Below are positions 3,563 through 56,388 of a stretch of 64,000 nucleotides of DNA, one piece after another. The translations under genes and the position numbers were made by a program. Source of the stretch: an uncultured delta proteobacterium (GTDB lineage: Bacteria > Desulfobacterota > Binatia > UBA9968). Every line of letters begins with the position of its first letter. The stretch's first letter is position 1. The DNA is taken from NCBI GenBank assembly GCA_963755715.1, contig CAVWLW010000059.1, forward strand, positions 64,001 through 128,000. The letters run 5' to 3'. The notes under the pieces were generated by a model that was given only the letters and a program-made list of their open reading frames with translations, was not told the origin of the DNA and did not search any database.

Positions 3563-3808
3563 TTACCCTACCTTGCGTACCTTCCGAGCTTTGATCATTC
3601 CATCAATAGAAAGATCTTCATCTAACTCCGGCCAGTGAATTCCATATCCCGACGGGGACAGCTCGAAATTTTCCTTCGTGCGCTGGTCTGCTGCCGCGAG
3701 CTTTTTGGAATGTTGCCGTAGATCAATCTCGTATTCCCGGCCGTCAACGTTAACAGAAGGTACTGATTTTCAAAGCGCACATTGTTTTACGTGATGATAT
3801 TTTTTCAT
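3563..3808 (-). pseudogene. DUF2442-family putative antitoxin, apparent compensating indels near the 5' end
   Basis: ATG overlaps upstream TGA (ATGA); C-terminal frame reads VDGREYEIDL...SGYGIHWPELDEDLSIDGM; early in-frame TGA removed by a +1/-1 correction. Confidence 0.7.
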
Positions 3809-5999: not shown

Positions 6000-6167
6000 A
6001 AGTTCCAGACGTTCAAGCTGTTCAATTGCTGAGCGGACCCTGCCCTGAGCGCAGCCGAACGGGTCAAGCCCCCTCTTTGATCCTCCCCCCGCTTCCGTGG
6101 GTGAGAAAACTATACTCCGAGCCGAATGGACCGAGGAGTTGAACGATTTGAACGGCTTGAACGAGTT
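6000..6167. repeat. Mosaic palindromic element with GTTCAA/TTGAAC arms and REP-like inserts
   Basis: Left AAGTTCCAGACGTTCAAGCTGTTCAA, right TTGAACGATTTGAACGGCTTGAACG; inner CCCTGAGCGCAGCCGAACGGG. Confidence 0.7.
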
Positions 6168-14226: not shown

Positions 14227-15288
14227 GTGACGATGACCCTGAGCAGGCGTCGGACGTTTAAAGCTTTTCTGATTACCGCCCTGCTATTTTTCGCTAACTC
14301 GCTTTCCCTCCGCGCCCAAAACGATTCCTTCTACAATGGCAGAACAGTTCGCATCATCGTCGGCTCGACGCCCGGCGGCTTTTACGATCGCTGGGCTCGG
14401 CTGCTTTCCCGTTACATCCCCAAATATATTGCCGGCAATCCAAACTTCGTCGTGCAGAATATGCCGGGCGCCAGCTCGGTCGTGGCCGCCAACTACGTTT
14501 ACAACTTGCCTAAGCCGGACGGGCTCACGGTGGTCATGCCCATCAATAGCTTGCATCTCGACCAGATCGTCGGCCGCCAAGAAGTAAAGTACGACATGCG
14601 CAAGTTTGAATACATCGGGAGTCAAGAAAAGACGCCGACGATGATGTACTTTCGCGCCGACAGTCCGATCAAGTCGCTCGCCGATATCATTCAAGCCAAG
14701 GAGCCGCCGAAATGCGGCTCCACTGGCACGGCCAGCACCGCGTATATCGTATCGAAACTTTTGATCGAAGCATTCAAGGCGCGGACCATCAGCGTGACCG
14801 GCTATCAAGGCGGCAGTGAGATCGACCTCGCGGTTGAACGCGGCGAGCTGGTTTGCCGCGAGATGGACGTGCCGCCGCACTTCGGCCGCGAGCCTTTCGA
14901 CGGTTGGCATAGGAAAGGCTTTGACCGGCATATTTTTCAAGGCGGACCCAAGCGCGATCCGCGCCTGGCCGACGTCCCGACCCTTTTCGAACTGTTGGAC
15001 CAACACAAATCACCGGCGATCATGCGCAATCTAACGCGTATCGTTTTAGCCAGCGGCGAGTTTGGCCGCCCGATGATGGCCGGCCCGGGCGTGCCACGGG
15101 ATCGGATCAAAACCCTGCGCGACGCCTACGGGAAAGCGATGCGCGACCCAAGCTTGATCGACGAGGCGAAAAAGGGCCAGATGGATATGGAATATACGCC
15201 CGGCGAAGAACTCCAAGCGCAGATCAAAGAGCTTTTGAATCAGCCGCACGAGGTCGTCGATCTCGTCAAGAAAATTCTCTCCGACTAG
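14227..15288 (+). CDS. tctC: TctC/Bug substrate-binding protein, array copy 1 (group A)
   Basis: Signal peptide; IIVGSTPGGFYDRWAR, VQNMPGA, PPKCG, HFGREPF. Confidence 0.88.
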   Translation: MTMTLSRRRTFKAFLITALLFFANSLSLRAQNDSFYNGRTVRIIVGSTPGGFYDRWARLLSRYIPKYIAGNPNFVVQNMPGASSVVAANYVYNLPKPDGLTVVMPINSLHLDQIVGRQEVKYDMRKFEYIGSQEKTPTMMYFRADSPIKSLADIIQAKEPPKCGSTGTASTAYIVSKLLIEAFKARTISVTGYQGGSEIDLAVERGELVCREMDVPPHFGREPFDGWHRKGFDRHIFQGGPKRDPRLADVPTLFELLDQHKSPAIMRNLTRIVLASGEFGRPMMAGPGVPRDRIKTLRDAYGKAMRDPSLIDEAKKGQMDMEYTPGEELQAQIKELLNQPHEVVDLVKKILSD

Positions 15289-15306
15289 CTTGGCATCGGA
15301 CTTAGA

Positions 15307-16377
15307 ATGGAGAAATCGAGGATGGTTAATTGCAAGATACATAGAATTTTGCCCGCTCTCCTGGTCATCGCTTGGCTGCTTTGCGCAAACTCATTGACCC
15401 AAGCCCAAAGCGAACCTTTCTACAATGGCAAGACCGTTCGCATCATCGTCGGTTTTACTCCCGGCGGCTTTTACGACCGTTGGGCGCGCTTGCTGTCACG
15501 CTACATGCCTAAATACATTCCCGGCAATCCTAATTTCATTGTGCAGAACATGCCCGGCGCCAGCTCGGTGATTGCCGCCAACTATGTTTATAATCTTGCG
15601 AAGGCCGACGGCTTAACGATCCTGGTGCCAATCAACAGTTTGTATCTGGATCAAATAGTCGGCCGCAAAGAAGTCAAGTTCGACGTGCGCAAGTTTGAAT
15701 TCATCGGCACCCAAGAAAAAGCGCCGACCCTGCTTTACTTCCGTGCCGACAGTCCGTTCAAAACCCTTGATGATATCATCAAGGCCAAGGAGCCGCCGAA
15801 GTGCGGATCGACGGGCACCGCGAGCACCGGCTATTTGCTCGCCAAAATCATGGACGAGGCGTTCAAAGCGAAACTCAACACCGTCAGTGGCTATCAGGGC
15901 GGCGCCGAAATCGATGTTGCGGTCGAGCGCGGCGAGATCATCTGCCGCGGCATGGACATCCCGCCGCACTTCGGCCGTGAGCCCTTCGACAGCTGGCACA
16001 AGAAAGGTTTCGACCGCCATATCCTTCAAAGCGGGCCAAAACGCGATCCGCGCATGGGCGATGCGCCGACATTGTTCGAGCTGATGGATCAATTCAAAAC
16101 TCCCGCGGTGATGCGCGGCGTCGCACGGGTGATTATGGCAAGCGGCGATTTTGGCCGACCCATGTTGATTGGACCCGGCAATCCACCGGATCGGGTAAAA
16201 ATACTTCGCGAAGCCTACGCCAAGGCAATGCACGACCCCGGACTAATCGACGAAGCAAAAAAAAGTCAAATGGACATGGAGCACACACCGGGTGAAGACC
16301 TTCAAACGCTGATGAAAGAGTTAATGAATCAACCGCGCGACGTCATCGACCGGGTGAAAAACGTTCTCGCCGACTAG
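15307..16377 (+). CDS. tctC: TctC/Bug substrate-binding protein, copy 2 (group A)
   Basis: IIVGFTPGGFYDRWAR, HFGREPFDSWH; start may be ATG 15322. Confidence 0.88.
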   Translation: MEKSRMVNCKIHRILPALLVIAWLLCANSLTQAQSEPFYNGKTVRIIVGFTPGGFYDRWARLLSRYMPKYIPGNPNFIVQNMPGASSVIAANYVYNLAKADGLTILVPINSLYLDQIVGRKEVKFDVRKFEFIGTQEKAPTLLYFRADSPFKTLDDIIKAKEPPKCGSTGTASTGYLLAKIMDEAFKAKLNTVSGYQGGAEIDVAVERGEIICRGMDIPPHFGREPFDSWHKKGFDRHILQSGPKRDPRMGDAPTLFELMDQFKTPAVMRGVARVIMASGDFGRPMLIGPGNPPDRVKILREAYAKAMHDPGLIDEAKKSQMDMEHTPGEDLQTLMKELMNQPRDVIDRVKNVLAD

Positions 16378-16400
16378 TCTGACAGGATAAGGAGATCTCC

Positions 16401-17453
16401 ATGATTGCGGGAAAATACGCCAAACAGATTTTTCTCTGCTGCGCTTTGACTTGGAATCTTCTCGGCGCCGGCAACGTCAAAGCGCAAAACGAACCCTTCT
16501 ACCAAGGTAAGACCGTCCGCATCGTCGTCGGCCTGACGCCGGGCGGGTTCTACGATCGCTGGGCGCGGCTCCTCGCCCGTTTCATGCCGTTATACATTCC
16601 GGGAAATCCTAACTTCATAGTGCAGAACATGGCGGGCGCGGGATCGATGATCGCGATGAACCATATTTACGGCGTCGCCAAAGCCGACGGCCTTACCCTC
16701 GGGATGCCAAACTATGGCGTCTATCTCGACCAACTCGCGGGGCGCAAAGAAGTCCGCTTCGACGTCACCAAGATGCATTACATCGGCTCGCCGGAGAAGA
16801 GCGATATCGTGCTTTACGCGCGCGCCGACGCCCCCTTCAAGACCCTCCAGGACATGAGAAAACTCTCCGAGCCGCCCAAGTGCGGTGCCAGTGGCACAGC
16901 CAGCGCCGATTACCTGATCGCCAAAGTGCTCGAAGACACCCTCGGAGTGAAAATCAATTCGGTCGTAGGATACGCCGGCGGCAGCGAAATCGACATCGCC
17001 GTGGAGAAAGGCGAAGTGCTTTGCCGCGGCATGACCATCGCTCCCCACTTTGGCCGCGAGCCCTTCGACAGTTGGCACAAGAAAAACTTCGATCGTCACA
17101 TCGTCCAAACCGCGGAGAAGCGCGATCCGCGCATCGGCGACGTGCCGACCATTTACGAGATCTTCGAAAAAGAAAATACCCCCGATGAGAGCCGCCGGGT
17201 CGCCGATGTGATTTTGCGCGGCGGCGACTTTGGCCGCCCGATGCTCGTGGGCCCGGGCACGCCGGTCGACCGGGTGAATATTCTGCGCGAGGCTTACGTC
17301 AAATCGATAAATAATCCGGAGCTCATCGCCGAAGCCAAAAAAACCCGCATGGACATGGAGCCGGTCAGCGGTGAGCAGCTGCAAGCCTTGGCAAAACGAG
17401 TGATGAATCAACCCCCTGCCGTACTCAAGCGCGTCAAGAAAATTCTTGAATAA
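16401..17453 (+). CDS. tctC: TctC/Bug substrate-binding protein, copy 3 (group A)
   Basis: AGGAG RBS; IVVGLTPGGFYDRWAR, HFGREPFDSWH. Confidence 0.88.
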   Translation: MIAGKYAKQIFLCCALTWNLLGAGNVKAQNEPFYQGKTVRIVVGLTPGGFYDRWARLLARFMPLYIPGNPNFIVQNMAGAGSMIAMNHIYGVAKADGLTLGMPNYGVYLDQLAGRKEVRFDVTKMHYIGSPEKSDIVLYARADAPFKTLQDMRKLSEPPKCGASGTASADYLIAKVLEDTLGVKINSVVGYAGGSEIDIAVEKGEVLCRGMTIAPHFGREPFDSWHKKNFDRHIVQTAEKRDPRIGDVPTIYEIFEKENTPDESRRVADVILRGGDFGRPMLVGPGTPVDRVNILREAYVKSINNPELIAEAKKTRMDMEPVSGEQLQALAKRVMNQPPAVLKRVKKILE

Positions 17454-17721
17454 GAAACTGAAATCTGCGGAACAACGGATCGTCGGCGTTCCCGGTCAAA
17501 AAGACGACAGCACATGAGGGCCGCATCCTTGCACTAAGCTATCTTGCGCATAGACCGCCCCCTCTACACGTAGACACCGAACCACGAAGGCCCAACTGAT
17601 TTTGCAGCAGCCGCTGGAAGTCTTAGCGCGAGTCCAAAAGATTCGGCAGCTAGTTGACTAAGACTTTAGTTGTGGCAGATTCATCGGGACGAATTATTAA
17701 TTTCAGGAGGTTTTTGTAGTA

Positions 17722-18753
17722 ATGACAAATCGCTGGCTTTTTCTCTTTGTTTTTCTGCTGACCGCAGCTTCGGCGCAAGCGCAGACGCCGTTCTACCAGG
17801 GCAAGACCATCACGATCATTGTCGGCACCAAAACGGGCGACGCCTACGATCTTTATCCGCGCATGCTTGCCGAGTTCATGCCAAAGTACATTCCCGGCAA
17901 TCCGAACATCATCATCCAGAACGTGCCCGGCGCCGCGTCGATGATCGCGGCCAATCAGGTTTACAGTGTGAACAAACCGGATGGATTGACGATCGGCGCC
18001 ATCTATCCGGCGCTCTACTTTGAGCAACTCACCAAAAAGCCGGAAGTGAGATTCGACTGGACAAAATTCGGCTGGGTCGGCAACCCGGTCACTTCGAACC
18101 ATTTGCTGTACATGCGTTCCGACGCTCCCTATAAATCGATGGACGACATCCGCAGCGCATCCACGGCGCCCAAGTGCGGCTCCAACGGCATTACTTCCAC
18201 CGGTTATTACTTACCCAAATTGATGGAAGAAACCCTCGGCACGAAGTTCGACATCGTCTTGGGCTATCAGTCCGGCCAAGACGTCGATCTCGCCGTCGAG
18301 CGGGGCGAAGTCGTTTGCCGCGCTTTTACCATCACGGCTTATTTCGCGCGCGAGCCCTTTATCTCTTGGCGCAAGCGAGGTTTCGTCAACGCCTTGATGC
18401 AGAGCGGCCTGAAGCGCGAGTCCAGACTGAAAGACGCGCCGACGATCTATGAGCTCATGGACAAGTACAAGACCAATGCCGCCGGCAGAAGCTTAGCGAA
18501 GGTTGTTTTAGCCGCCGGTGAGTTTGGCCGCCCGCTCGTCGTAGCTCCCGGCGTGCCCGCCGATCGCTTGAAGATCTTGCGCGACGCCTTCGACAAATCG
18601 GTGAGTGATCCAGCATTGCTGGCAACCGCCGAAAAGCGGCGCCTGGAGATGGACCCCGCTTCCGGCAGCGAACTCGAGTCGCTGGCAAAAGAGGTCATGG
18701 CCGCCACACCCGACGTAGTGCAGCGTATGGAGAAATTGCTGAGCGGCAAGTAA
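17722..18753 (+). CDS. tctC: TctC/Bug substrate-binding protein, copy 4 (group B)
   Basis: AGGAGG RBS; IIVGTKTGDAYDLYPR, CRAFTITAYFAREPF. Confidence 0.88.
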   Translation: MTNRWLFLFVFLLTAASAQAQTPFYQGKTITIIVGTKTGDAYDLYPRMLAEFMPKYIPGNPNIIIQNVPGAASMIAANQVYSVNKPDGLTIGAIYPALYFEQLTKKPEVRFDWTKFGWVGNPVTSNHLLYMRSDAPYKSMDDIRSASTAPKCGSNGITSTGYYLPKLMEETLGTKFDIVLGYQSGQDVDLAVERGEVVCRAFTITAYFAREPFISWRKRGFVNALMQSGLKRESRLKDAPTIYELMDKYKTNAAGRSLAKVVLAAGEFGRPLVVAPGVPADRLKILRDAFDKSVSDPALLATAEKRRLEMDPASGSELESLAKEVMAATPDVVQRMEKLLSGK

Positions 18754-18844
18754 ACCGCAGCACCGGTATCCCTCGAGGTTGTTGCATCACGGCAACCTTG
18801 AGGGTTATGGTTCGGGCAAATTTTCGGCGGGAAGGGGAAACACT

Positions 18845-19870
18845 ATGATTCTAATTCTCGTCTTGTTGCTTGCTTTCGGGTGGAGCTCGCGTCTATTCGC
18901 CCAAGCAAATTTCTACCAGGGCAAAACCATCACCATCGTCGTCGGCACCAAAGCCGGCGATGTTTACGATCTCTACCCGCGCCTGCTGTCGGAGTTTTGG
19001 CCGAAGCACTTTCCCGGCAGCCCGAACATCATCGTTCAAAACGTCCCCGGCGCGGGTTCGTTGATCGCCGCCAACCAGGTTTACAACGTCGCCAAGCCGG
19101 ACGGATTGACGCTCGGCGCCATTTATCCCGCGCTCTATTTCAACCAATTAATCAAGAAATCGGAAGTCAAATACGATTGGGCGAAGTTCAACTGGATCGG
19201 CAGCACGGTGACGTCGAACCAGCTTTTGTACATGCGCGCCGATACGCCGTACAAATCCATCGAAGAGGTGCGCAAAGCGAGCACCGCGCCGAAATGCGGC
19301 GCCACCGACATCAGCTCCGCGGGTTACTACATTCCCAAGATCATCGATGAAACTCTCGGGACCAAATTCGAAATCGTCTCTGGTTATCCGTCAGGTCAGG
19401 ATATCGATCTCGCGGTGGAGCGCGGCGAGCTTCAGTGCCGGGCGTTTACGATCACCGCTTATTTCGCGCGCGAGCCGTTTATCTCATGGCGCAAGCGGAA
19501 CTTCACCAGCGTCTTGATCCAGACCGGCAACAAGCGCGACGGCCGAATCAAAGACTCGCCGACGATCTACGAGTTGATGGACAAGTACAAAACCAACGAC
19601 AACGGCAGGCGGCTCGCCAAAGTCATCCTGGCAGCGGGAGACTTCGGTCGTCCGATCGTCGCCGCACCCGGCGTGCCGGCGGAACGCATGAAGATCTTGC
19701 GCGACTCTTTCGACAAGACCATCGCCGATCCCGCGTTCCTTGCGGAAGCCGAAAAGCGCCGGCTGGAAATCGATCATACAAGATGGGACGAGATGGAATC
19801 CCTGGCGAAGGACGTCATGGCGACGCCGCCGGAGATCGTCGCGCGCATGCGCAAGCTATTGGGTGAATAA
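18845..19870 (+). CDS. tctC: TctC/Bug substrate-binding protein, copy 5 (group B)
   Basis: ATG 18845 MILILVLLLAFG; GTKAGDVYDLYPR, CRAFTITAYFAREPF. Confidence 0.88.
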   Translation: MILILVLLLAFGWSSRLFAQANFYQGKTITIVVGTKAGDVYDLYPRLLSEFWPKHFPGSPNIIVQNVPGAGSLIAANQVYNVAKPDGLTLGAIYPALYFNQLIKKSEVKYDWAKFNWIGSTVTSNQLLYMRADTPYKSIEEVRKASTAPKCGATDISSAGYYIPKIIDETLGTKFEIVSGYPSGQDIDLAVERGELQCRAFTITAYFAREPFISWRKRNFTSVLIQTGNKRDGRIKDSPTIYELMDKYKTNDNGRRLAKVILAAGDFGRPIVAAPGVPAERMKILRDSFDKTIADPAFLAEAEKRRLEIDHTRWDEMESLAKDVMATPPEIVARMRKLLGE

Positions 19871-19909
19871 CAAACGCAAGCTACAAATCGCTCTAAAGAA
19901 GGAGACACC

Positions 19910-20939
19910 ATGGTGACAAGATTTTTGTTCGGACTGTTGGTTCTGTTTTGGTCTTCTACGCTCCACGCTCAAGCGCCTTTTTACCAAGGCAAGACGATCC
20001 AGATCATCGTCGGCACCAAGGCCGGGCGATGTCTATGATCTTTATCCGCGGCTCGTCGCTGAGTTTATGCCAAAGTATATTCCGGGAAATCCAAATATTA
20101 TTATTCAGAATGTCGCCGGAGCCGCCGGACTGATCGCCACCAATCAAGTTTACAACATTGCCAAGCCCGATGGCCTGACCCTAGGCGCGATTTATCCGGC
20201 GCTTTATTTCGAACAGCTCGCCAAACGTCCGGAAGCCAAGTTCGAGTGGAACAAGTTCAATTGGATCGGCAGCACAGTGAGCTCGAACAGCTTGATGTAC
20301 ATGCGGTCCGACACGCCTTATAAAACCATCGAGGATATTCGCACCGCTTCGACGCCGCCAAAGTGCGGCGCCACCGGTGTCACATCGACCGCCTATTACA
20401 TGCCCAAACTCCTGGAAGACGCCGTCGGCGCCAAGTTCGATGTCGTGCCGGGTTATGTAGCGGGCCAGGACATCGACTTAGCCGTCGAGCGCGGCGAGGT
20501 CATGTGCCGGGCGTTCACCGTTAACGCCTTTTTCGCTCGCGAGCCATTTATCACGTGGCGCAAGAAAAACTTCGTTCGCGTCCTGTATCAGACCGGGTCG
20601 AAAAGGGATGCGAGGATCAAAGACGTTCCGTTATTTAACGAGTTGATGGACAAATACAAGACGACGGAAAATGTACGACGGTTGGTGAAAGTCGTCGTCG
20701 CCGCCGATGAGTTCGGCCGTCCCATCGTCATGCCGCCAGGGGTTCCGGCCGACCGCGTCAAGATCATCCGCGATGCGTTCAATAAGGCAATCAATGACCC
20801 AGCCCTGCTGGCGGAAGCCGAGAAGCGTCGCCTCGACATCGACCCAGCCACCGGTGAGGAACTCGACTCTTTGGCGAAAGAGGTCATGACCGCGACGCCC
20901 GACGTCGTTGAAAAAGTAAAAAAGCTCATCGGCATGTGA
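19910..20939 (+). CDS. tctC: TctC/Bug substrate-binding protein, copy 6 (group B), +1 indel near 20024
   Basis: AAGGAG-ATG 19910 MVTRFLFGLLVLFWSSTLHAQAPFYQGKT; extra G in GCCGGGCGAT; rest is ORF 20067-20939. Confidence 0.85.
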
Positions 20940-20968
20940 GCCGGATCATTGCGAACGGAAAATTTCCT

Positions 20969-22027
20969 ATGTTGAGGAAACTTGAAAGAGCGAAGTTCAC
21001 CGCTTCGCTCTTTTTTTTCATCGTGATCTACTTGAGCGCGACCGCCCACGTCGACGCGCAAAGCAACTTTTACCAAGGCAAGACGATCAGGATCGTGATC
21101 GGCTCTTCCACCGGTGGCGGCTACGATCTGTGGGCGCGGGTCTTGGCCCGGCACTACGGCAAGTACATTCCGGGCAACCCGACGATCCTGGTGCAAAACA
21201 TGCCGGGCGCTGCGTCGATCGTCGCGACCAACTATCTCTCCAACGTCGCCAAACCGGACGGGCTCACCCTCGGCGCCATCCTGCCGGCGATTTATTTCGA
21301 TCAACTGGTCGGCCGGCCGGAAGTCAAATTCGATTTCGCCAAGATCGCCTGGATCGGCTCGCCGGAACAGAACGACATCATTCACTACATGCGCGCCGAT
21401 TCGCCCTATCGAAGCATCGACGATATCCGCAAGGCCAAGGAGCCGCCCCGCTGCGGTAGTTCTGGCACGGGCACGACTGGATTTTACATCCCGCGTCTCC
21501 TCGATGAGGTGTTGGGCACCAAACACACCATTGTCAGCGGCTACCCCGGCGGCTCGGAGATCGATTTGGCGGTCGAGCGCGGCGAAGTTCATTGTTGGTC
21601 GCCCTTGGTGGCGACTTTTTTCGGCCGGGAGCCGTATATTTCCTGGCAAAAAAAAGGCTTTGTCCGCGTACTCCTCCAGACCAACCGCAAACGCGATTCG
21701 CGTTTAGCGGACGTGCCAACCATCTACGAGCTGATGGATCAATACAAAACACCGGAAGCGGGCAAGCGCCTTACGCGTGTAATCTTAGTCGCCGCGACCC
21801 TCGGCCGCCCCATCGCCGTCACCCCTGGAATACCGCCGGACCGGCTCAAGCTTCTTCGCGAAGCTTATCTCAAGACGCTGAAAGACCCGGAGCTGGTCGC
21901 TGAAACCAAAAGGCAGCGGTGGGATATCGATCCGCTGACCGGCGAGGAGATGGAACAACTTGCCAAGGAAGTCATCGCGCAACCGAAGGAAGTCATCGAA
22001 CGGATGAAATGGGTGCTCGGGAATTAA
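20969..22027 (+). CDS. tctC: TctC/Bug substrate-binding protein, copy 7 (group C)
   Basis: GSSTGGGYDLWAR, CWSPL, ends ERMKWVLGN; start could be GTG 20936. Confidence 0.88.
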   Translation: MLRKLERAKFTASLFFFIVIYLSATAHVDAQSNFYQGKTIRIVIGSSTGGGYDLWARVLARHYGKYIPGNPTILVQNMPGAASIVATNYLSNVAKPDGLTLGAILPAIYFDQLVGRPEVKFDFAKIAWIGSPEQNDIIHYMRADSPYRSIDDIRKAKEPPRCGSSGTGTTGFYIPRLLDEVLGTKHTIVSGYPGGSEIDLAVERGEVHCWSPLVATFFGREPYISWQKKGFVRVLLQTNRKRDSRLADVPTIYELMDQYKTPEAGKRLTRVILVAATLGRPIAVTPGIPPDRLKLLREAYLKTLKDPELVAETKRQRWDIDPLTGEEMEQLAKEVIAQPKEVIERMKWVLGN

Positions 22028-22029
22028 CT

Positions 22030-23112
22030 ATGAAAACTCAGTTGAGAAGTTCAAAAGTTCAAGGGTTCAATGTTCTCGGACTCATCTTGGCTCTAATCCT
22101 TGAACTTTTTAACCCATTGAACCTTGAGCGGGCGTCTGCCCAGACGCCCTTCTATCAGGGCAAAACCATCACCATGGTCGTCGCTTCCACCGTCGGGGGC
22201 GGCTACGATCTCTGGGCGCGGCTCACGGCGCGTCACATCGTCAAGTATATTCCAGGGCACCCATCGATCGTCGTGCAAAACATGCCGGGAGCCGGGAACA
22301 TCATCGGCGCCAACTATGTGTACGGCGTCGCCAAGCCCGATGGCTTGACCCTCGGCGCCGTCAATCCCGCGCTTTATTTCGATCAACTGGTGGGCCGATC
22401 CGAAGTGAAATTCGACTGGGGTAAATTCAACTGGATCGGCTCGCCGGAAAAAAACGACGTCGTCTACTACATGCGCGCCGACACCCCTTTCAAGACCATC
22501 GAAGATCTGCGCAACGCCAAGGAACCAGCCAAATGCGGCAGCACCGGCACCGGCTCCACCGGCCACTATATTCCGCGGCTGCTCGAAGAAACGCTCGGCA
22601 TCAAAACCCAGATCGTCAGCGGCTACCCCGGCGCCCCCGATATCGAATTGGCCATCGAGCGCGGCGAAGTCTTTTGCTGGTCGCCGCTGCTCGCGACCTA
22701 TTTTGGCCGCGAACCTTATCGGCGTTGGCACAAGTCCGGCTACGTGCGCGTCCTGATGCAAACCGGGGCGAAGCGCGACCCGCGCCTGAAGGACACGCCA
22801 ACGCTGAACGAGCTCATGCAACAATATAAAACTTCCGAGGCGGGTCACCGACTGGCAAAAGTAATTTTAACGGCCGCCACCCTCGGGCGGCCCATCGGCG
22901 CCGCGCCGGGCACGCCCGCCGACCGCGTGAAGATTTTGCGCGATGCCTATGCCAAAGCCATCGCCGATCCGGAATTGCTCGCTGACGCCGCTAAACAGGG
23001 ATGGGAAGTCGATCCAACCAAAGGCGAAGAGCTGCAAAAGTTATCAAAGGAAGTCATCACCCAGCCGCGCGAGATCATCGAGCGCATGAAGTGGGTGCTC
23101 GGGCGGGAATAA
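22030..23112 (+). CDS. tctC: TctC/Bug substrate-binding protein, copy 8 (group C), palindrome-encoded signal peptide
   Basis: MKTQLRSSKVQGFNVLGLILALILELFNPLNLERASAQ; ASTVGGGYDLWAR, CWSPL. Confidence 0.88.
   Translation: MKTQLRSSKVQGFNVLGLILALILELFNPLNLERASAQTPFYQGKTITMVVASTVGGGYDLWARLTARHIVKYIPGHPSIVVQNMPGAGNIIGANYVYGVAKPDGLTLGAVNPALYFDQLVGRSEVKFDWGKFNWIGSPEKNDVVYYMRADTPFKTIEDLRNAKEPAKCGSTGTGSTGHYIPRLLEETLGIKTQIVSGYPGAPDIELAIERGEVFCWSPLLATYFGREPYRRWHKSGYVRVLMQTGAKRDPRLKDTPTLNELMQQYKTSEAGHRLAKVILTAATLGRPIGAAPGTPADRVKILRDAYAKAIADPELLADAAKQGWEVDPTKGEELQKLSKEVITQPREIIERMKWVLGRE
22049..22129. repeat. GTTCAA / TTGAAC inverted array inside the signal-peptide coding region
   Basis: GTTCAA at 22049, 22057, 22065; TTGAAC-like at 22100, 22108, 22117, 22124. 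Confidence 0.85.
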
Positions 23113-23115
23113 AAA

Positions 23116-24194
23116 ATGCCAAGCCGTTCAAGAGTTCAAAAGTTCAAGGGTTCAAGGTTCTCGGACTCTTCTCCGTTCTGACCCTTGAACTCTTGAACCC
23201 TTTGAACCTTGAACCGGTATTCGCGCAAGCGAATTTCTATCAAGGTAAAACCGTTAAAGTCATTGTCGGTTCGGCGCCAGGCGGCGGCTACGATCAATGG
23301 GCGCGCCTGATGGCGCAGCACATCGGCAAACATCTTCCCGGCCACCCGACGGTGATCGTGCAAAATATGCCGGGTGCGGGCGGCGTAATCGCGGCGAATT
23401 TTGTCTACGGTCTCGCCCAGCCCGATGGCTTGACTATGGGCGCTTTCAATCCCGCGGCCTACTTCGAACAGCTCGTCGGCCGCCCGGAAATCAAATTCGA
23501 TTGGAGCAAATTTACCTGGATCGGCTCGCCGGAGAAAAATGACGTCGTCCATTTCATACGCGCCGACTCGCCGTTTAAATCGATCGACGATCTGCGCAAC
23601 GCCAAGGATCCGCCCAAATGCGGCAGCACCGGCCCCGGCACCACGGCTCATTATTTTCCCCGTCTGCTCGAGGACACGCTCGGCATCAAGACGACCGTTG
23701 TCACCGGTTATCAAGGCGGCTCCGAAATTGACCTCGCCATCGAGAGAAACGAAGTGATCTGCTGGTCGCCGCTGAGCGGAACCTACTTCGGACGCGAGCC
23801 CTACAAACGCTGGCACAAGTCCGGATTCATCCGCGCCGTCGTCCAAACCGGCGCAAAACGCGATGAGCGGTTGAAGGACACGCCGACGCTAACGGAATTG
23901 ATGCAGCAGTATAAGACGCCCGAAGCGGGCCGCCGTTTGGCAAAAGTAGTCCTAACAGCGACGACTCTCGGCCGGCCCGTCGCCGCCCCGCCGCGCTTGT
24001 CGGGCGAGCGCACGAAAATTCTGCGCGATGCCTACGCCAAGACCATGAACGACCCGGAACTTCTAGCTGAGGCGGCTAAACGCGGCTGGGATGTCGATCC
24101 GCTCACTGGCGCCGAACTAGAGTCCCTCGCGAAAGATGTCATCGCCCAACCGAAAGAAGTGATCGAGCGGATGAAGTGGGTGCTCGGGAATTGA
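23116..24194 (+). CDS. tctC: TctC/Bug substrate-binding protein, copy 9 (group C), palindrome-encoded signal peptide
   Basis: KPFKSSKVQGFKVLGLFSVLTLELLNPLNLEPVFAQ; ATG 23116 is one base out of frame (probable missing base). Confidence 0.85.
23126..23214. repeat. GTTCAA x4 / TTGAAC x4 inverted array inside the signal-peptide coding region
   Basis: GTTCAA at 23126, 23134, 23142, 23150; TTGAAC at 23185, 23193, 23202, 23209. Confidence 0.9.
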
Positions 24195-24259
24195 CCGCAT
24201 TCCGAACTTTCGCTCGAATGATCTTTGACCTCTAACCTGCCAACAAAGTGAGGTGCTCC

Positions 24260-25366
24260 GTGAAGCATGATTTTCATAATGCGCTCCTCTCCCGCTTCAC
24301 AAGTTCTAAGGTTTTAAAGTTCAAGGTCCTCTCGCTAATCACATTGCTAATTTTTGAACTTTTGAACGCCTGGAACCTTGAACCATTATTCGCGCAAGGG
24401 AATTACTACCAAGGCAAAACCATCCGCGTCATCGTCGGTTATCAAGCCGGCGACTCTCACGATCAGTGGGCGCGCACCTACACCCGCTACCTGGGCAAGT
24501 ATATTCCCGGTAATCCGAACTTTCTCGTGCAGAACATGCCCGGTGCCGGCGGCATGATTGCCGCCAACTACATTTACAACATCGCCAAGCAAGACGGACT
24601 GACCATGGGCACCATTGGCGGGGCGTTGTACTTCGCCCAACTGATCGGCCGCAGCGAGGTGAAATACGATTGGAATAAATTTACCTGGATCGGCACGCCG
24701 GAGCGCAGCGGTTTTCTGCTCTTCATGCGCACGGATGCGCCGTATAAAACTCTGGACGATATCCGCAATGCCAGTGAGCCGCCGCGTTGTTCGGCGACCG
24801 GCGTTGGCAGCAGCGGATACGATATTCCGCGCGTGCTCGAAGACACTCTCGGTTTGCGCTTCAAAGTGATCAGCGGTTACCCGGGCGGCGCCGATCAAGA
24901 CCTCGCCATGGAACGGGGCGAAGTGCACTGCCGCGCTTTTACCATCGACGCCTTTTTCGGACGCGAGCCGTTTCCGACCTGGGTGAAGAAGGGTTTTGTC
25001 CGGGTCGTGATGCAGATGGAACGCAAGCGCCATCCCAAACTCGCGGATGTGCCAACTATTTGGGAATTGATGGATCAATACAAAGTGCCGGAATCCAAAC
25101 GGCGGCTTGCCACCGTCTATCTCAACAGCGGGCTGTTTGGTTCGCGTCCGATCGTTTCAACGCCGGGTCTTTCAGCGGAACAGGCGAAGATCCTACGCGA
25201 CGCCTATGTAAAGACGCTCAAAGATCCGGAGTTCTTGGACGAGATCGCCAAGCGGGGTTGGACCGTGGACCCGGTGAGCGGCGAAGACTTACAAACGTTG
25301 GCCAAAGAAGTCACCAGCCAACCGCCGGAAGTTGTCGAATGGCTAAAGAAACTATTAGCGAAATGA
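24260..25366 (+). CDS. tctC: TctC/Bug substrate-binding protein, copy 10, palindrome-encoded signal peptide
   Basis: GTG start after GAGGTG; FTSSKVLKFKVLSLITLLIFELLNAWNLEPLFAQ; GYQAGDSHDQWAR, CRAFTIDAFFGREPF; degenerate repeat 24303-24383. Confidence 0.87.
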   Translation: MKHDFHNALLSRFTSSKVLKFKVLSLITLLIFELLNAWNLEPLFAQGNYYQGKTIRVIVGYQAGDSHDQWARTYTRYLGKYIPGNPNFLVQNMPGAGGMIAANYIYNIAKQDGLTMGTIGGALYFAQLIGRSEVKYDWNKFTWIGTPERSGFLLFMRTDAPYKTLDDIRNASEPPRCSATGVGSSGYDIPRVLEDTLGLRFKVISGYPGGADQDLAMERGEVHCRAFTIDAFFGREPFPTWVKKGFVRVVMQMERKRHPKLADVPTIWELMDQYKVPESKRRLATVYLNSGLFGSRPIVSTPGLSAEQAKILRDAYVKTLKDPEFLDEIAKRGWTVDPVSGEDLQTLAKEVTSQPPEVVEWLKKLLAK

Positions 25367-25388
25367 TCAGGCAAAAGTGAGAGCTGTC

Positions 25389-25729
25389 ATGGCACAACGA
25401 TCGCGATTGGCGTGGTTAGGCTCGTTCAAATGTTCAAGCGTTCAAGATGCTCGCGCTATCCGTCTTATTTCTTCTTGAACTTTTGAACCCGTCGAACCTT
25501 GAACGGTTATTCGCGCAGTACCACACCGGGCTTGCCGGCTGAGCGAATCAAACTGCTGCGCGAGGCGCATTGGCGGATGTTCACAGATCCGGAATGTCAG
25601 GAGGACATTTTTCTAAAAAGGCTGGAATGCGCGGCCAGTCAACAGCGAGGATTCGGCGGTACTGGAAAAGAAGTCGTCAATCAATCGCCGGAGATCGCTG
25701 CGGAACTGAAACGAAATTCGCGTCAATAA
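25389..25729 (+). pseudogene. Internally deleted tctC remnant (copy 11)
   Basis: Palindromic signal region FKMLALSVLFLLELLNPSNLERLFAQ joined directly to C-terminal TPGLPAERIKLLREA..FTDPE..KEVVNQSPE. Confidence 0.75.
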
Positions 25730-25846
25730 AATACCTCAACAGGCTCAGCTGGAAATTCGAAATTCGCTGGGAATCCGTTTGACCGCAATTACAATCTGCG
25801 GTAATGAGCAGATTCCCAGATTTGAACGAGAGCAGAGGAGACACGA

Positions 25847-27364
25847 ATGTCGGAAGCGTCCTATATGCTCAATGCATTCATAAGCGGGTTTTGGCAAACC
25901 GTCGCGTGGCCCGCATTCGGCTACATGCTATTGGGCATCATCATCGGATTCTGGGTCGGCTTACTTCCGGGAATCGGCGGCCTTTCCACCCTGGCGCTCA
26001 TGTTGCCATTTTCCTACTCCATCAAAGAGCCTATCTCTGCGTTCGCGTTTCTCCTCGGCATGCTCGCCGTTACCGGAACCACAGGCGATCTCACATCCAT
26101 TCTTTTCGGAATTCCCGGCGAGGGATCTTCGGCCGCCCTCATTCTAGACGGGTATCCCATGTCTAAAAACGGTGAGGCCGGTCGGGCCCTCGGCGCTGCG
26201 ATTATGAGCTCTCTCGTCGGCTCGGTGATAGGGGCTCTTTCTCTCGCCGTGTCCATCCCGATCGTGCGCCCGCTCGTTTTACTCTTCGGCTCGCCGGAAT
26301 TATTCATCATAGCGATCATGGGCATCACGTTCATCGGTACTCTTGCCGGCCCGTCACTCATAAAGGGATTACTCGCGGGCGGTATTGGATTGATGCTCGC
26401 AGCGATCGGCGTCGATCCGCAAACCGGATCATTGCGCTACACATTCGGGAGCCTTTACCTGTGGGATCGTCTGGATCTCATACCGGTCGTCGTCGGCATG
26501 TTCGCGATACCGGAAATCGTCGATCTAGCCGTCAGAGGCACCAGCATCGCCAGCGGCAAACAGGAGAAACTCTCTGGCGTCCTAGAAGGCTGCAAGGATA
26601 CTTTTCGACACTGGTGGCTCGTCGTACGTTGCAGCCTGATCGGCGTCTACTTCGGTATTTTACCGGTGTTAGGCGCGAACGTTGCCCAGTGGATCTCTTA
26701 TGCGCACGCCGTACAGGGACTGAAGGACAAATCCCGCGCGGGTAAAGGCGCAGTGGAAGGCGTGTTAGGCCCCGGCTGCGCCAACAACGCAACACGCGGC
26801 GGAGATCTCATTCCAACTCTTGCCTTCGGTATCCCTGGCAGCGGCAGCATGGCATTACTCCTCGGCGCCATGTTGATCGTCGGACTGAACCCTGGTCCGG
26901 AAATGCTTAAATCGCGGCTCGACGTGACCTTCTCAATGGTGTGGGTGCTGATTCTATCAAACATCATCGTCGCTGGCCTTTGTTTTCTGATATTGAATCA
27001 TCTGGCCGCTCTGACTTTTGTCCGTGGCACCTTGTTGATTCCGTTTCTCCTTTTTCTCGTGTTCATCGGATCGTTTACAGCCAACAACGATCTCGCCGAC
27101 ATCGTTGTCACGCTGCTTTTCGGCTTTATCGGTTACTTCATGATCAAGTTCGGATGGCCCAGGCCGCCGCTAGTCCTCGGTCTCACTCTCGGGAAGATCG
27201 CCGAGAATTACTTGTGGATCTCGACCGCGGCCTATGGCGCGAAGTGGCTCCTCTTCCCGACGGTGTTAGGACTCATCGCAGTGACAATCTTCACCATCGC
27301 GTTTCCCACGATCAAAGAACGGATGGGCAAAGCGAAGTACGAACGTCCGGAAGACGCGATGTAA
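25847..27364 (+). CDS. tctA: Tripartite tricarboxylate transporter large membrane subunit
   Basis: GIIIGFWVGLLPGIG signature, ILFGIPG, DGYPMSKNGEAGRAL, IPTLAFGIPGS; polytopic. Confidence 0.93.
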   Translation: MSEASYMLNAFISGFWQTVAWPAFGYMLLGIIIGFWVGLLPGIGGLSTLALMLPFSYSIKEPISAFAFLLGMLAVTGTTGDLTSILFGIPGEGSSAALILDGYPMSKNGEAGRALGAAIMSSLVGSVIGALSLAVSIPIVRPLVLLFGSPELFIIAIMGITFIGTLAGPSLIKGLLAGGIGLMLAAIGVDPQTGSLRYTFGSLYLWDRLDLIPVVVGMFAIPEIVDLAVRGTSIASGKQEKLSGVLEGCKDTFRHWWLVVRCSLIGVYFGILPVLGANVAQWISYAHAVQGLKDKSRAGKGAVEGVLGPGCANNATRGGDLIPTLAFGIPGSGSMALLLGAMLIVGLNPGPEMLKSRLDVTFSMVWVLILSNIIVAGLCFLILNHLAALTFVRGTLLIPFLLFLVFIGSFTANNDLADIVVTLLFGFIGYFMIKFGWPRPPLVLGLTLGKIAENYLWISTAAYGAKWLLFPTVLGLIAVTIFTIAFPTIKERMGKAKYERPEDAM

Positions 27365-42237: not shown

Positions 42238-42288
42238 GATTAAAATGAAAGACCGAGGGCCGAAACGGCTTGAACGGTTGGAACGCTT

Positions 42289-47280: not shown

Positions 47281-47351
47281 GTTCAAAAGTTCACGGGCAG
47301 AATTCAGACTACGCTTTCGTGGATTTACTTGAACTTTTGAATCTTTGAACG
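47281..47351. repeat. Free intergenic GTTCAA/TTGAAC palindrome
   Basis: GTTCAAAAGTTCA ... TTGAACTTTTGAATCTTTGAAC; same arms as the tctC signal-region element. Confidence 0.75.
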
Positions 47352-56326: not shown

Positions 56327-56388
56327 TTGAACGGCTTGAACGATTTGAACTGTTTGAACGTTGAAATTGGACCTTGAACTTTTGAACG
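56327..56388. repeat. TTGAAC tandem arm next to the metE-II stop codon
   Basis: TTGAACGGCTTGAACGATTTGAACTGTTTGAACGTTGAA..TTGAACTTTTGAAC. Confidence 0.75.

Follow-up and report, generated by a model that had tools for sequence, protein, structure and literature searches.

Signal peptides are usually viewed as loosely constrained and fast-evolving, and intergenic palindromic repeats as junk or as punctuation of the mRNA. The Rickettsia palindromic elements (RPEs), reportedly described by Ogata and co-workers in 2000, are said to be inserted in frame in protein genes, and the hairpins of repetitive extragenic palindromic (REP) sequences and bacterial interspersed mosaic elements (BIMEs), for example between malE and malF, are non-coding and linked with RAYT transposases. 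Another related type is the intervening sequence (IVS) of 23S rRNA genes: in Coxiella, it is excised by RNase III at a 28-bp terminal stem, PF05635 is the protein family encoded in such IVSs, and its member from Xanthomonas forms a homopentameric ring of four-helix bundles, as described in PMC4990558; a kinship of this family with Avd, a protein of diversity-generating retroelements, is stated in PMC10053308. In-frame palindromic repeats and IVS-type PF05635 elements are already known. Here, we report on a window of 64,000 nt from an uncultured member of the Binatia (contig CAVWLW010000059.1, positions 64,001 to 128,000), which contains ten tandem genes for TctC/Bug solute receptors (PF03401) at 14227-25366, followed by the gene of a TctA membrane subunit at 25847-27364. 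Copies 8, 9 and 10 of the receptor genes, and a relic behind them, begin with an element of inverted GTTCAA and TTGAAC hexamers, which is called cassette in the following.

We hold with good confidence that the element is a translated cassette from a foldback repeat family, that it is under dual constraint and that it is exchanged among paralogues. One object would then be both things that are usually kept apart, in that each of the three segments of a foldback (arm, loop, arm) corresponds to one region (n, h, c) of an export signal.

The cassette and its reading frame

The element is built of three to four GTTCAA hexamers at a period of 8, a loop of 29 nt and four TTGAAC hexamers at spacings of 8, 9 and 7. 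The preliminary description of this DNA had proposed a palindromic repeat exapted as the signal peptide of four consecutive receptor genes, and all four elements are present where it had placed them, each on the plus strand. Copy 9 carries the canonical form at 23126-23214 (left arm 23126-23155, loop 23156-23184, right arm 23185-23214), with four exact GTTCAA at period 8 and four exact TTGAAC at the spacing 8/9/7. In the cassette of copy 8 at 22049-22129 (left arm 22049-22070, loop 22071-22099, right arm 22100-22129), GTTCAA starts at 22049, 22057 and 22065, and the right arm comprises two exact and two one-mismatch copies of TTGAAC. The cassette of copy 10 at 24303-24383 has a decayed left arm (24303-24324; GTTCTA, GTTTTA, GTTCAA) and a right arm (24354-24383) that reads TTGAAC, TTGAAC, TGGAAC, TTGAAC. 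The fourth element, at 25424-25504 (arms 25424-25445 and 25475-25504), does not head a receptor gene any more: its frame reads FAQ and runs into a stop 8 codons on, and only a TctC 3' end, out of frame, is left downstream, which makes it a dead relic and reduces the four consecutive genes to copies 8-10. The pattern GTTCAANNGTTCAA with at most one mismatch matched 16 times in the window, compared to a mean of 0.35 and a maximum of 2 in shuffles. A search of Rfam gave no family matching window 21000-26000 at E values up to 1.

Read in frame, the left arm gives F-K-S-S-K-V-Q-G-F-K, the loop V-L-G-L-F-S-V-L-T and the right arm L-E-L-L-N-P-L-N-L-E, followed by P-V-F-A↓Q. This assignment of arms and loop to signal-peptide regions had been made before and agrees with the translations of the open reading frames (ORFs), which run through the window cassettes as …SSKVQGFNVLGLILALILELFNPLNLERASAQ↓TPFYQGK, …FKSSKVQGFKVLGLFSVLTLELLNPLNLEPVFAQ↓ANFYQGK and …FTSSKVLKFKVLSLITLLIFELLNAWNLEPLFAQ↓GNYYQGK. 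For a broader view, 88 TctC genes were taken from the window and from 18 loci in 17 related Binatia genomes; they were picked by a regular expression on the mature start only, and genes with less than 200 open codons past this motif were excluded. With up to three mismatches to LELLNPLNLE allowed, the right-arm peptide occurs in 45 of the 88 genes, the left-arm peptide in 40 and both in 38, while three more genes hold a complete cassette one base off frame and 38 are without any arm. In all 45 carrying genes the cassette is read in one and the same frame.

The starts are consistent with translation through the element. True starts downstream of the hairpin had been raised earlier as a possibility, but 32 of the 38 two-armed genes have an ATG in frame at 2-12 codons ahead of the left arm, most often at a distance of 4 (13 genes) or 8 codons (12 genes), and the other six begin with GTG (three) or TTG (one) or show none of these starts (two). 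A Shine-Dalgarno-like (SD-like) motif precedes the start in 30 of the 38, and only three offer any in-frame ATG past the left arm and ahead of the mature domain. In the window, copy 8 (22030-23112, plus strand; PF03401, E 5e-17) has its ATG at 22030, 2 nt past the stop of copy 7 and four codons ahead of the left arm, with GGGA upstream. Copy 10 (24260-25366, plus strand; PF03401) starts with GTG at 24260 behind GAGG at 24250-24253, and both the start and the SD sequence match those of a related gene in L069 (nt 919). For copy 9 (23091-24194, plus strand; PF03401) the canonical ATG at 23116, 3 nt past the upstream stop and four codons ahead of the stem, is off by 1 nt, and the assembled frame is open from a GTG at 23091. 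Its orthologues read ATG, three codons and TTCAAG, and contigs of three soil metagenomes from three studies (runs X1, X5 and X7) have an extra base behind 23119 or 23120, which restores the frame to M-L-K-P-F or M-P-N-P-F (compare P0003, P0006 and P0065).

The encoded peptide has the build of a Sec-type signal. The start is followed by a basic n-region of the type F-K-x-S-K/R-V-Q-x-F-K/N, in which the second spacer position is Lys or Arg in 32 of 40 genes. The loops are 29-32 nt long and encode 9-10 residues, and 35 of 36 loop peptides are distinct; nevertheless, their mean hydropathy is +2.45 in frame versus -0.20 and -0.28 in the other two frames, and only 11 of 345 residues are charged. Where the spacers between hexamers encode Leu, third positions are free (CTT 19, CTC 12, CTG 6, CTA 5), and the same is true for Pro (CCT 22, CCC 17, CCG 1, CCA 1) and for Lys, for which both AAA and AAG occur. 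Putative cleavage sites VFA↓Q, ASA↓Q, AAA↓Q and LFA↓Q can be read directly from the sequences, and A↓Q is found as well in paralogues with ordinary signals. Together, a basic n-region, a hydrophobic h-region and small residues at -3/-1, as expected for substrates of signal peptidase I (SPase I), are present in the sequence. The median distance from the upstream stop to the mature motif, 141 nt in cassette genes (n=34) and 136 nt in others (n=23), is uninformative in this respect.

These data demonstrate protein-level selection on the spacer-coded Lys/Arg, Leu and Pro and on the hydrophobicity of the loop. Because of the starts with their SD-like motifs, the hydrophobic loops and the selection on spacer residues, we conclude that the ribosome reads through the element in this frame and that the product is organised into n-, h- and c-regions like a Sec signal. 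TctC receptors are exported proteins, and judged from their sequences the carrying receptors would be devoid of an export signal without the cassette, which probably acts as their Sec signal peptide. Alternatively, the element could be a non-coding intergenic repeat, with the true starts downstream and the open frame accidental. Stop-to-stop frames indeed often cross intergenic arrays of the same hexamers: among 141 such arrays in the source genome (G000), 39 are situated close to where a long open frame begins, a count from crude stop-to-stop frames in which 5' UTR and coding sequence are not separable. Moreover, copy 9 as assembled is without an upstream in-frame ATG. However, an accident of this kind would have to produce one single frame in 45 genes behind ATG and SD motifs, loops that are hydrophobic in this frame only, and Leu and Pro codons at the spacers that are kept while their third positions vary; it would also leave exported receptors without signal peptide, and the related contigs restore the frame of copy 9. 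Such an explanation is, therefore, scarcely credible to us. The earlier suggestion that a repeat was taken into frame as export signal thus appears to hold, as it agrees with the upstream starts, the single frame, the spacer selection, the in-frame hydrophobicity of the loops and the existence of a dispersed family. For annotation, it should be mentioned that repeats of this type at gene starts in metagenome genomes can represent genuine coding DNA.

Constraint on the hexamer letters and the status of the hairpin

In contrast to the spacers, the codons laid down by the hexamers are nearly invariant. Val is encoded by GTT in 39/39 cases, Gln by CAA in 35/36, Ser by TCA in 36/38, Phe by TTC in 37/37 and 36/37, Glu by GAA in 44/45 and 44/45, Leu by TTG in 42/43 and 40/42 and by CTT in 37/37, and Asn by AAC in 38/39 and 39/40. 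Several of these codons are in the minority where the same genes encode the mature protein; there, TCA makes up 5% of the Ser codons, GTT 12.5% of the Val codons, and CTT and TTG 9% and 23% of the Leu codons. The FYQGKT motif, situated only a few codons downstream in the same 45 genes, freely uses synonymous codons (TTC 24 and TTT 13; TAT 28 and TAC 17; AAA 26 and AAG 19; for Thr, ACC 26, ACG 12, ACT 5 and ACA 2). Furthermore, across 63 metagenome homologues the amino-acid variation sits on the spacer-coded positions. Hence, the hexamer letters themselves are constrained, with rare codons frozen at synonymous sites. Since the hexamer codons are frozen while the spacers vary, and since the loops vary and yet stay hydrophobic, constraints at the protein and at the nucleotide level coexist, and the diverged spacers and loops exclude recent copying.

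A purely protein-level explanation would regard the cassette as a signal or sorting peptide that is specialised and conserved in one TctC clade and is encoded by DNA that is palindromic by accident. The peptide is indeed highly conserved on the 63 proteins and nearly confined to TctC, and signal peptides with conserved motifs such as YSIRK and the extended signal peptide region (ESPR) are known elsewhere. However, the fixation of hexamer residues on minority codons, next to equally conserved FYQGKT residues that use all their synonymous codons, excludes in our view that the protein level alone is responsible, and the residues vary exactly where spacers encode them. Moreover, the same hexamer arrays occur in non-coding DNA across the genome and the family. 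We consider this explanation very improbable. The cassette rather represents a clean natural case of overlapping codes, in which the codon data reveal selection on letters beyond that on residues.

The preliminary description had also considered the hairpin itself as the selected unit, and here the evidence is divided. In such a scenario, an intercistronic stem-loop inside the coding region would set processing or stability of the mRNA, by RNase III as in IVSs, and couple translation to the upstream gene. The palindromic nature is evident for copy 9, which folds with -51.8 kcal/mol (z -6.8; 0/200 dinucleotide shuffles as good) and which is also better than its synonymous recodings (-43.0 versus a mean of -21.3, z -4.4). 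With 50 recodings per gene as control, the mean fold of the 38 cassettes is -30.2 kcal/mol versus -19.8 for the recodings, and the matching 90 nt of 33 non-cassette paralogues have a mean of -18.8. The stem starts approximately 12-24 nt past the start codon, and the starts of copies 8 and 9 are placed closely between the upstream stop and the stem. Finally, the 30-nt arms are similar to the stem of 28 bp at which RNase III cuts the Coxiella IVS (PMC4990558), and full-length elements of the family bear an IVS-type PF05635 gene.

Nevertheless, a number of results weigh against our own reading, most of them where it touches on this hairpin. For copy 8 (-28.2 kcal/mol, z -1.2), copy 10 (z -1.7) and the relic (z -1.8) the fold hardly differs from dinucleotide shuffles, so that copy 9 alone forms a strong hairpin; against synonymous recodings, copies 8 and 10 are no better (z -0.4 and -1.0). 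Altogether 19 of the 38 cassettes, these two included, are no better than the best of their 50 recodings. Compensatory changes in the arms, for which an alignment of 23 cassettes of 88 nt was searched, were not found: pairing cells make up 91.8% versus 91.2% in shuffles (74/500 as high), the covariation score is 0.050 versus 0.040 (35/500 as high), at the free spacer positions no more than 7 to 14 of the 23 sequences pair, and the innermost spacers are complementary at 20/42 versus 19.2 by permutation. The stem in this alignment rests wholly on the invariant hexamers. The right arm alone is kept in 7 of 45 genes, which makes the hairpin dispensable. Further points on this side are the long c-region of the cassette with its two Glu, the lack of an in-frame ATG in the assembled copy 9, and the kinship of the genomes, whose loci were taken from best protein matches, so that the counts are not independent events.

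Thus, the data show conserved inverted hexamer arrays and not a hairpin that is kept by compensatory change. Many intergenic arrays of the source genome, moreover, are without inverted partner; by exact match, 58 of its 119 array loci are R-only and 39 F-only. Selection on an RNA hairpin is, accordingly, a possibility that we regard as rather doubtful.

The repeat family, its exchange among receptor genes and the receptor array

The non-coding arms listed in the preliminary description are all present in the window, although two of them are less regular than assumed; no strand is assigned to any of the four. A long foldback at 6011-6162 consists of GTTCAA twice (period 9), approximately 110 nt of other sequence and TTGAAC three times (period 9). 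A short foldback at 47281-47351 with period-8 arms lies between the ends of two genes and folds with -22.8 kcal/mol (z -2.7). In contrast, 56327-56387 comprises direct arrays of TTGAAC (four times at period 9, twice at period 8) with no inverted partner and is not a palindrome, and 42261-42286 is a degenerate single array with one TTGAAC and a TTGGAAC. The entire source genome (7.4 Mb, 56% G+C) holds its 141 arrays of at least two exact hexamers at the 119 loci mentioned above, with spacings of 9 nt (124), 8 nt (46) and 7 nt (31). By eye, most of the arrays displayed sit at gene boundaries; those at C24:208757 and C59:163926 are directly upstream of ATG codons, and those at C69:44376 and C64:51524, both next to gene starts, precede start codons behind which hydrophobic N-termini resembling signals are encoded. 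In long composites such as window 6011-6162, C14:83958-84199 and C64:158087-158227, the outer arms are GTTCAA/TTGAAC arrays, and further repeats are found in the cores, among them a short inner hairpin rich in G+C (tcctcccccgcg…) and, in the C14 case, another dispersed repeat.

Regarding their distribution, period-9 arrays were found in 82 of 121 genomes of the order, namely in 79/87 of family f1, in 2/5 of f2 with single matches and in 0/28 of f3; f1 genomes hold tens to hundreds of matches each, and a reversed-pattern control gave approximately zero. The right arm of the cassette is restricted to 17 of the 121 genomes, which are 14 of 29 in genus g1 plus G000, one of 7 in g13 and one of 5 in g15. 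Outside g1, the copies in G082 (g15) belong to real TctC genes, and the copy in G096 (g13) is not in a long frame. The arrays are widespread and the cassette is narrowly distributed, and from this distribution we assume that the repeat probably gave rise to the signal peptide. If correct, the cassette illustrates a route by which new export signals can arise and spread through a gene family. Some variants were noticed among the carriers: L087:1400-1700 (G082) has two complete in-frame tandem cassettes before one TctC gene (…FKSSRAKTFKVIG…ELLNALNLERASTNPFKSSKVQAFKV…ELSNPWNLELAFAQ), and P0007 and P0047 show partial left-arm duplications.

A fuller form of the repeat is found in the genus. Among 29 loci (L091-L119), each of which is the best PF05635 locus of one genus genome, seven (L100, L104, L105, L107, L110, L111 and L117; L107 comes from the unpublished genome G005) have a PF05635 ORF between GTTCAA x3-4 and TTGAAC x3-4, with period-8 and period-9 arms, and several of them look like a single orthologous site. 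According to their flanks, the enclosing copies seen lie between protein genes. We know of no function for the PF05635 family, and the cassette offers a handle on the role of its genes and of short-oligomer arrays. In the source genome, this GTTCAA-type build occurs only as a decayed copy (C25:109805-110034). Three intact PF05635 genes are situated there inside inverted arrays of other oligomers, which are GGGTAAG-like, TGAGT-like or TAGGCA-like (C34:108530-109364, C29:15152-15986 and C14:35595-36381), and each PF05635 protein may be paired with its own repeat motif. Moreover, a different short-period array, of the TTTTGGATTTT type and read as FWIFDFGL or LDFGL in open frames, is often found upstream of TctC genes without the cassette (L068:3600-3800; L072, upstream of the genes at 3609 and 4695, minus strand; L075:2400-3630), which suggests that several families of oligomer arrays share the same intercistronic position. 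As possible mobilisers of the arrays, Y1/RAYT transposases were considered and rejected, since nine PF01797 matches occur in the source genome and an array lies within 700 nt of only one of them. Compared with miniature inverted-repeat transposable elements (MITEs), inverted arms are present, and no transposase was found.

The shuffling of the element between paralogues, another claim of the preliminary description, is supported. On a tree of 84 mature domains, from which four genes with less than 300 residues were left out, the presence of the cassette changes at least 14 times; a first labelling of the tree gave 16 changes, 13 of them forced by well-supported branches. Copies 2, 3 and 7 are without cassette, and relatives at 90%, 86% and 94% identity, respectively, have it; copy 10 has it although it belongs to the other main clade, which confirms the earlier observation on copies 7 and 10. 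Among pairs with at least 85% identity, 57 are discordant and 143 concordant for its presence. Paralogue pairs within genomes share the loop type (9 or 10 codons) in 38 of 47 cases, versus 27 of 57 for orthologue-like pairs between genomes and a background of 243/457. In G018, six of six loops are of one type and in G023 four of four are of the other, while the genus genomes G022, G024, G008 and G013 have no cassette on any of the same orthologues. Since presence switches on the tree and the loop type follows the genome instead of orthology, the cassette is exchanged among paralogues. This is concerted evolution, in which it was spread or replaced across old paralogues within lineages, probably by recombination between tandem genes or by gene conversion. 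With both pairs and genomes related to each other, these numbers describe patterns and are not independent counts.

These findings make it necessary to consider that the hexamers are frozen without any function as nucleic acid, i.e. that the hexamers of a working signal peptide stay identical through a mutational process such as short-tract gene conversion, or through recent spread. Biased repair or conversion may yield frozen hexamers without function. The concerted evolution of cassettes within genomes would fit, about a hundred other arrays in the genome could serve as templates, and the free positions with neither covariation nor pairing preference as well as the genes with a right arm only would find a simple explanation. 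However, spacers and loops differ in nearly every copy, conversion tracts would need a length of 6 nt and would have to skip the 1-3 nt in between, and the Leu, Pro and Lys codons of the spacers are saturated with synonymous variation, which contradicts a recent spread. We regard this alternative as unlikely, but not as negligible.

Outside the TctC family the cassette was hardly seen. In a search of 1.84 billion representative proteins, its peptide gave 16 matches, all of which open, by reading, with TctC-type N-termini, so that other families were rejected as carriers there; several of the 16 are short or off frame after the N-terminus. The single carrier seen outside TctC is P0032, in which the cassette heads an ABC-type substrate-binding protein (PF04392).

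Returning to the reading we prefer, the element would be a gene-less copy of a Binatia GTTCAA foldback repeat, the full form of which would consist of inverted hexamer arrays around a PF05635 gene of the 23S rRNA IVS type. Mainly in one genus, such a copy was probably taken in frame into the beginning of TctC genes, presumably when a foldback located between two cistrons of this family fell under the control of a start codon upstream of it. The GTTCAA arm would thereby supply the basic n-region, the loop the h-region and the TTGAAC arm the L-E-L-L-N-P-L-N-L-E sequence up to the A-x-A↓Q site, with protein and nucleotide constraints acting together on the same 88 nt. Most likely, the cassette keeps the nucleic-acid role of the intergenic arrays, but any specific proposal for this role is much less certain than the core of our reading. 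Our leading guess is an interrupted intercistronic stem of approximately 30 bp that could be processed or protected like the RNase III stems of IVSs and that could make initiation depend on the upstream ribosome by hampering independent initiation. Alternatively, the arrays may be binding sites of a factor that reads the hexamers directly, which appears about equally likely. We put forward only tentatively that every hexamer is read twice, once by the ribosome and once by a dedicated reader of nucleic acid, to which the intergenic arrays would be targets as well; candidates would be the ring-shaped, pentameric PF05635 protein on 3-5 hexamers spaced by 8-9 nt, or RNase III on the stem. In this case, the export signal of each tandem TctC gene would contain a separate site for processing or regulation, and the common cassette would drive a recombination that reshuffles and expands the receptor repertoire.

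The remaining part of the receptor array is of a more ordinary kind. Copies 1-7 (14227-22027, plus strand) have, according to their ORFs and translations, ordinary signal peptides that are unlike one another and close with A↓Q before the common mature start (F/Y)Y(Q/N)GKT; no hexamers were found upstream of copies 1-5 and 7. Copy 6 (plus strand) is frameshifted near 20024-20030 in a G run, as judged from its 5' end, and copy 7 (plus strand) has an open frame at 20936-22027 with a PF03401 match. In Pfam, copies 7-10 reach 43-66 bits for PF03401, for which the gathering cut-off is 27, and the TctA gene (25847-27364, plus strand) matches PF01970 with E 8e-120. Both copy 6 (20010-20040) and copy 9 (23116-23126) deviate from their frame by a single base in short homopolymer runs, which may be assembly indels or real lesions and decay. 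A first look gave 109 TctC candidates in the source genome and 100-200 in the larger g1 genomes; the family is hugely expanded in this Binatia lineage. Of the sampled words of window 21900-25600, 64-75% are present in contigs of soil and rhizosphere metagenomes, which come from several studies; near relatives thus recur in soil samples, and short-read contigs often break at the cassettes. In the metatranscriptome X15, contigs given without ends or strand cover parts of copies 8-10 at 90-99% identity and do not cover the cassettes, which is neutral with regard to transcription or processing.

Comparison with known systems

REP/BIME hairpins share with the cassette that a dispersed palindrome lies between the cistrons of a binding-protein transporter operon, where the hairpin can set differential mRNA stability. 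However, the Binatia cassette lies inside the reading frame, and the poor association of its arrays with Y1 matches (one of nine) sets it apart from REP as well. The 23S rRNA IVSs with S23p/PF05635 ORFs of Coxiella, Leptospira and Xanthomonas have terminal inverted repeats of about 28-30 nt that can form a stem (PMC4990558), and the GTTCAA foldback agrees with them in this build. In contrast to them, the Binatia elements are located between genes for proteins and have arms that consist of one repeated hexamer with free spacers; there are also dispersed copies devoid of a gene, and one of the forms is translated.

The palindromic amphipathic repeat coding elements (PARCELs) are similar insofar as they are coding DNA with dyad symmetry that is tied to membrane-targeted proteins and has moved within genomes. 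According to PMC2996958, however, they form domains of 25 residues that are arranged as tandem tracts within mature proteins of unknown function, and they are neither a single N-terminal export signal nor derived from an intergenic repeat family. The Sec signal peptides of the YSIRK and ESPR types have the same n/h/c build and also place a conserved motif on many proteins, but their conservation is at the protein level, whereas that of the cassette follows the DNA hexamers including synonymous sites.

Our search of the literature, which covered papers without their supplements, gave no description of a repeat-encoded signal peptide or of Binatia TctC arrays, and none of a repeat that supplies all three regions of an export signal, is dually constrained and is passed among paralogues; likewise, no paper joining a Rickettsia palindromic element with a signal peptide was found. 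The RPEs, to which the preliminary description had compared the element, are an analogue in that they are dispersed palindromic repeats inside ORFs which are translated with the protein. The likeness is one of analogy only. RPEs are internal insertions in many unrelated genes and have no assigned role. A comparable spread over unrelated families can be rejected for the cassette, because 58 of its 63 metagenome carriers are PF03401 proteins, one belongs to PF04392 and four are without Pfam match. Compared with the RPEs, the Binatia cassette would hence stand out as a complete N-terminal signal peptide, which is found on one receptor family, is held under dual constraint and is exchanged among paralogues.

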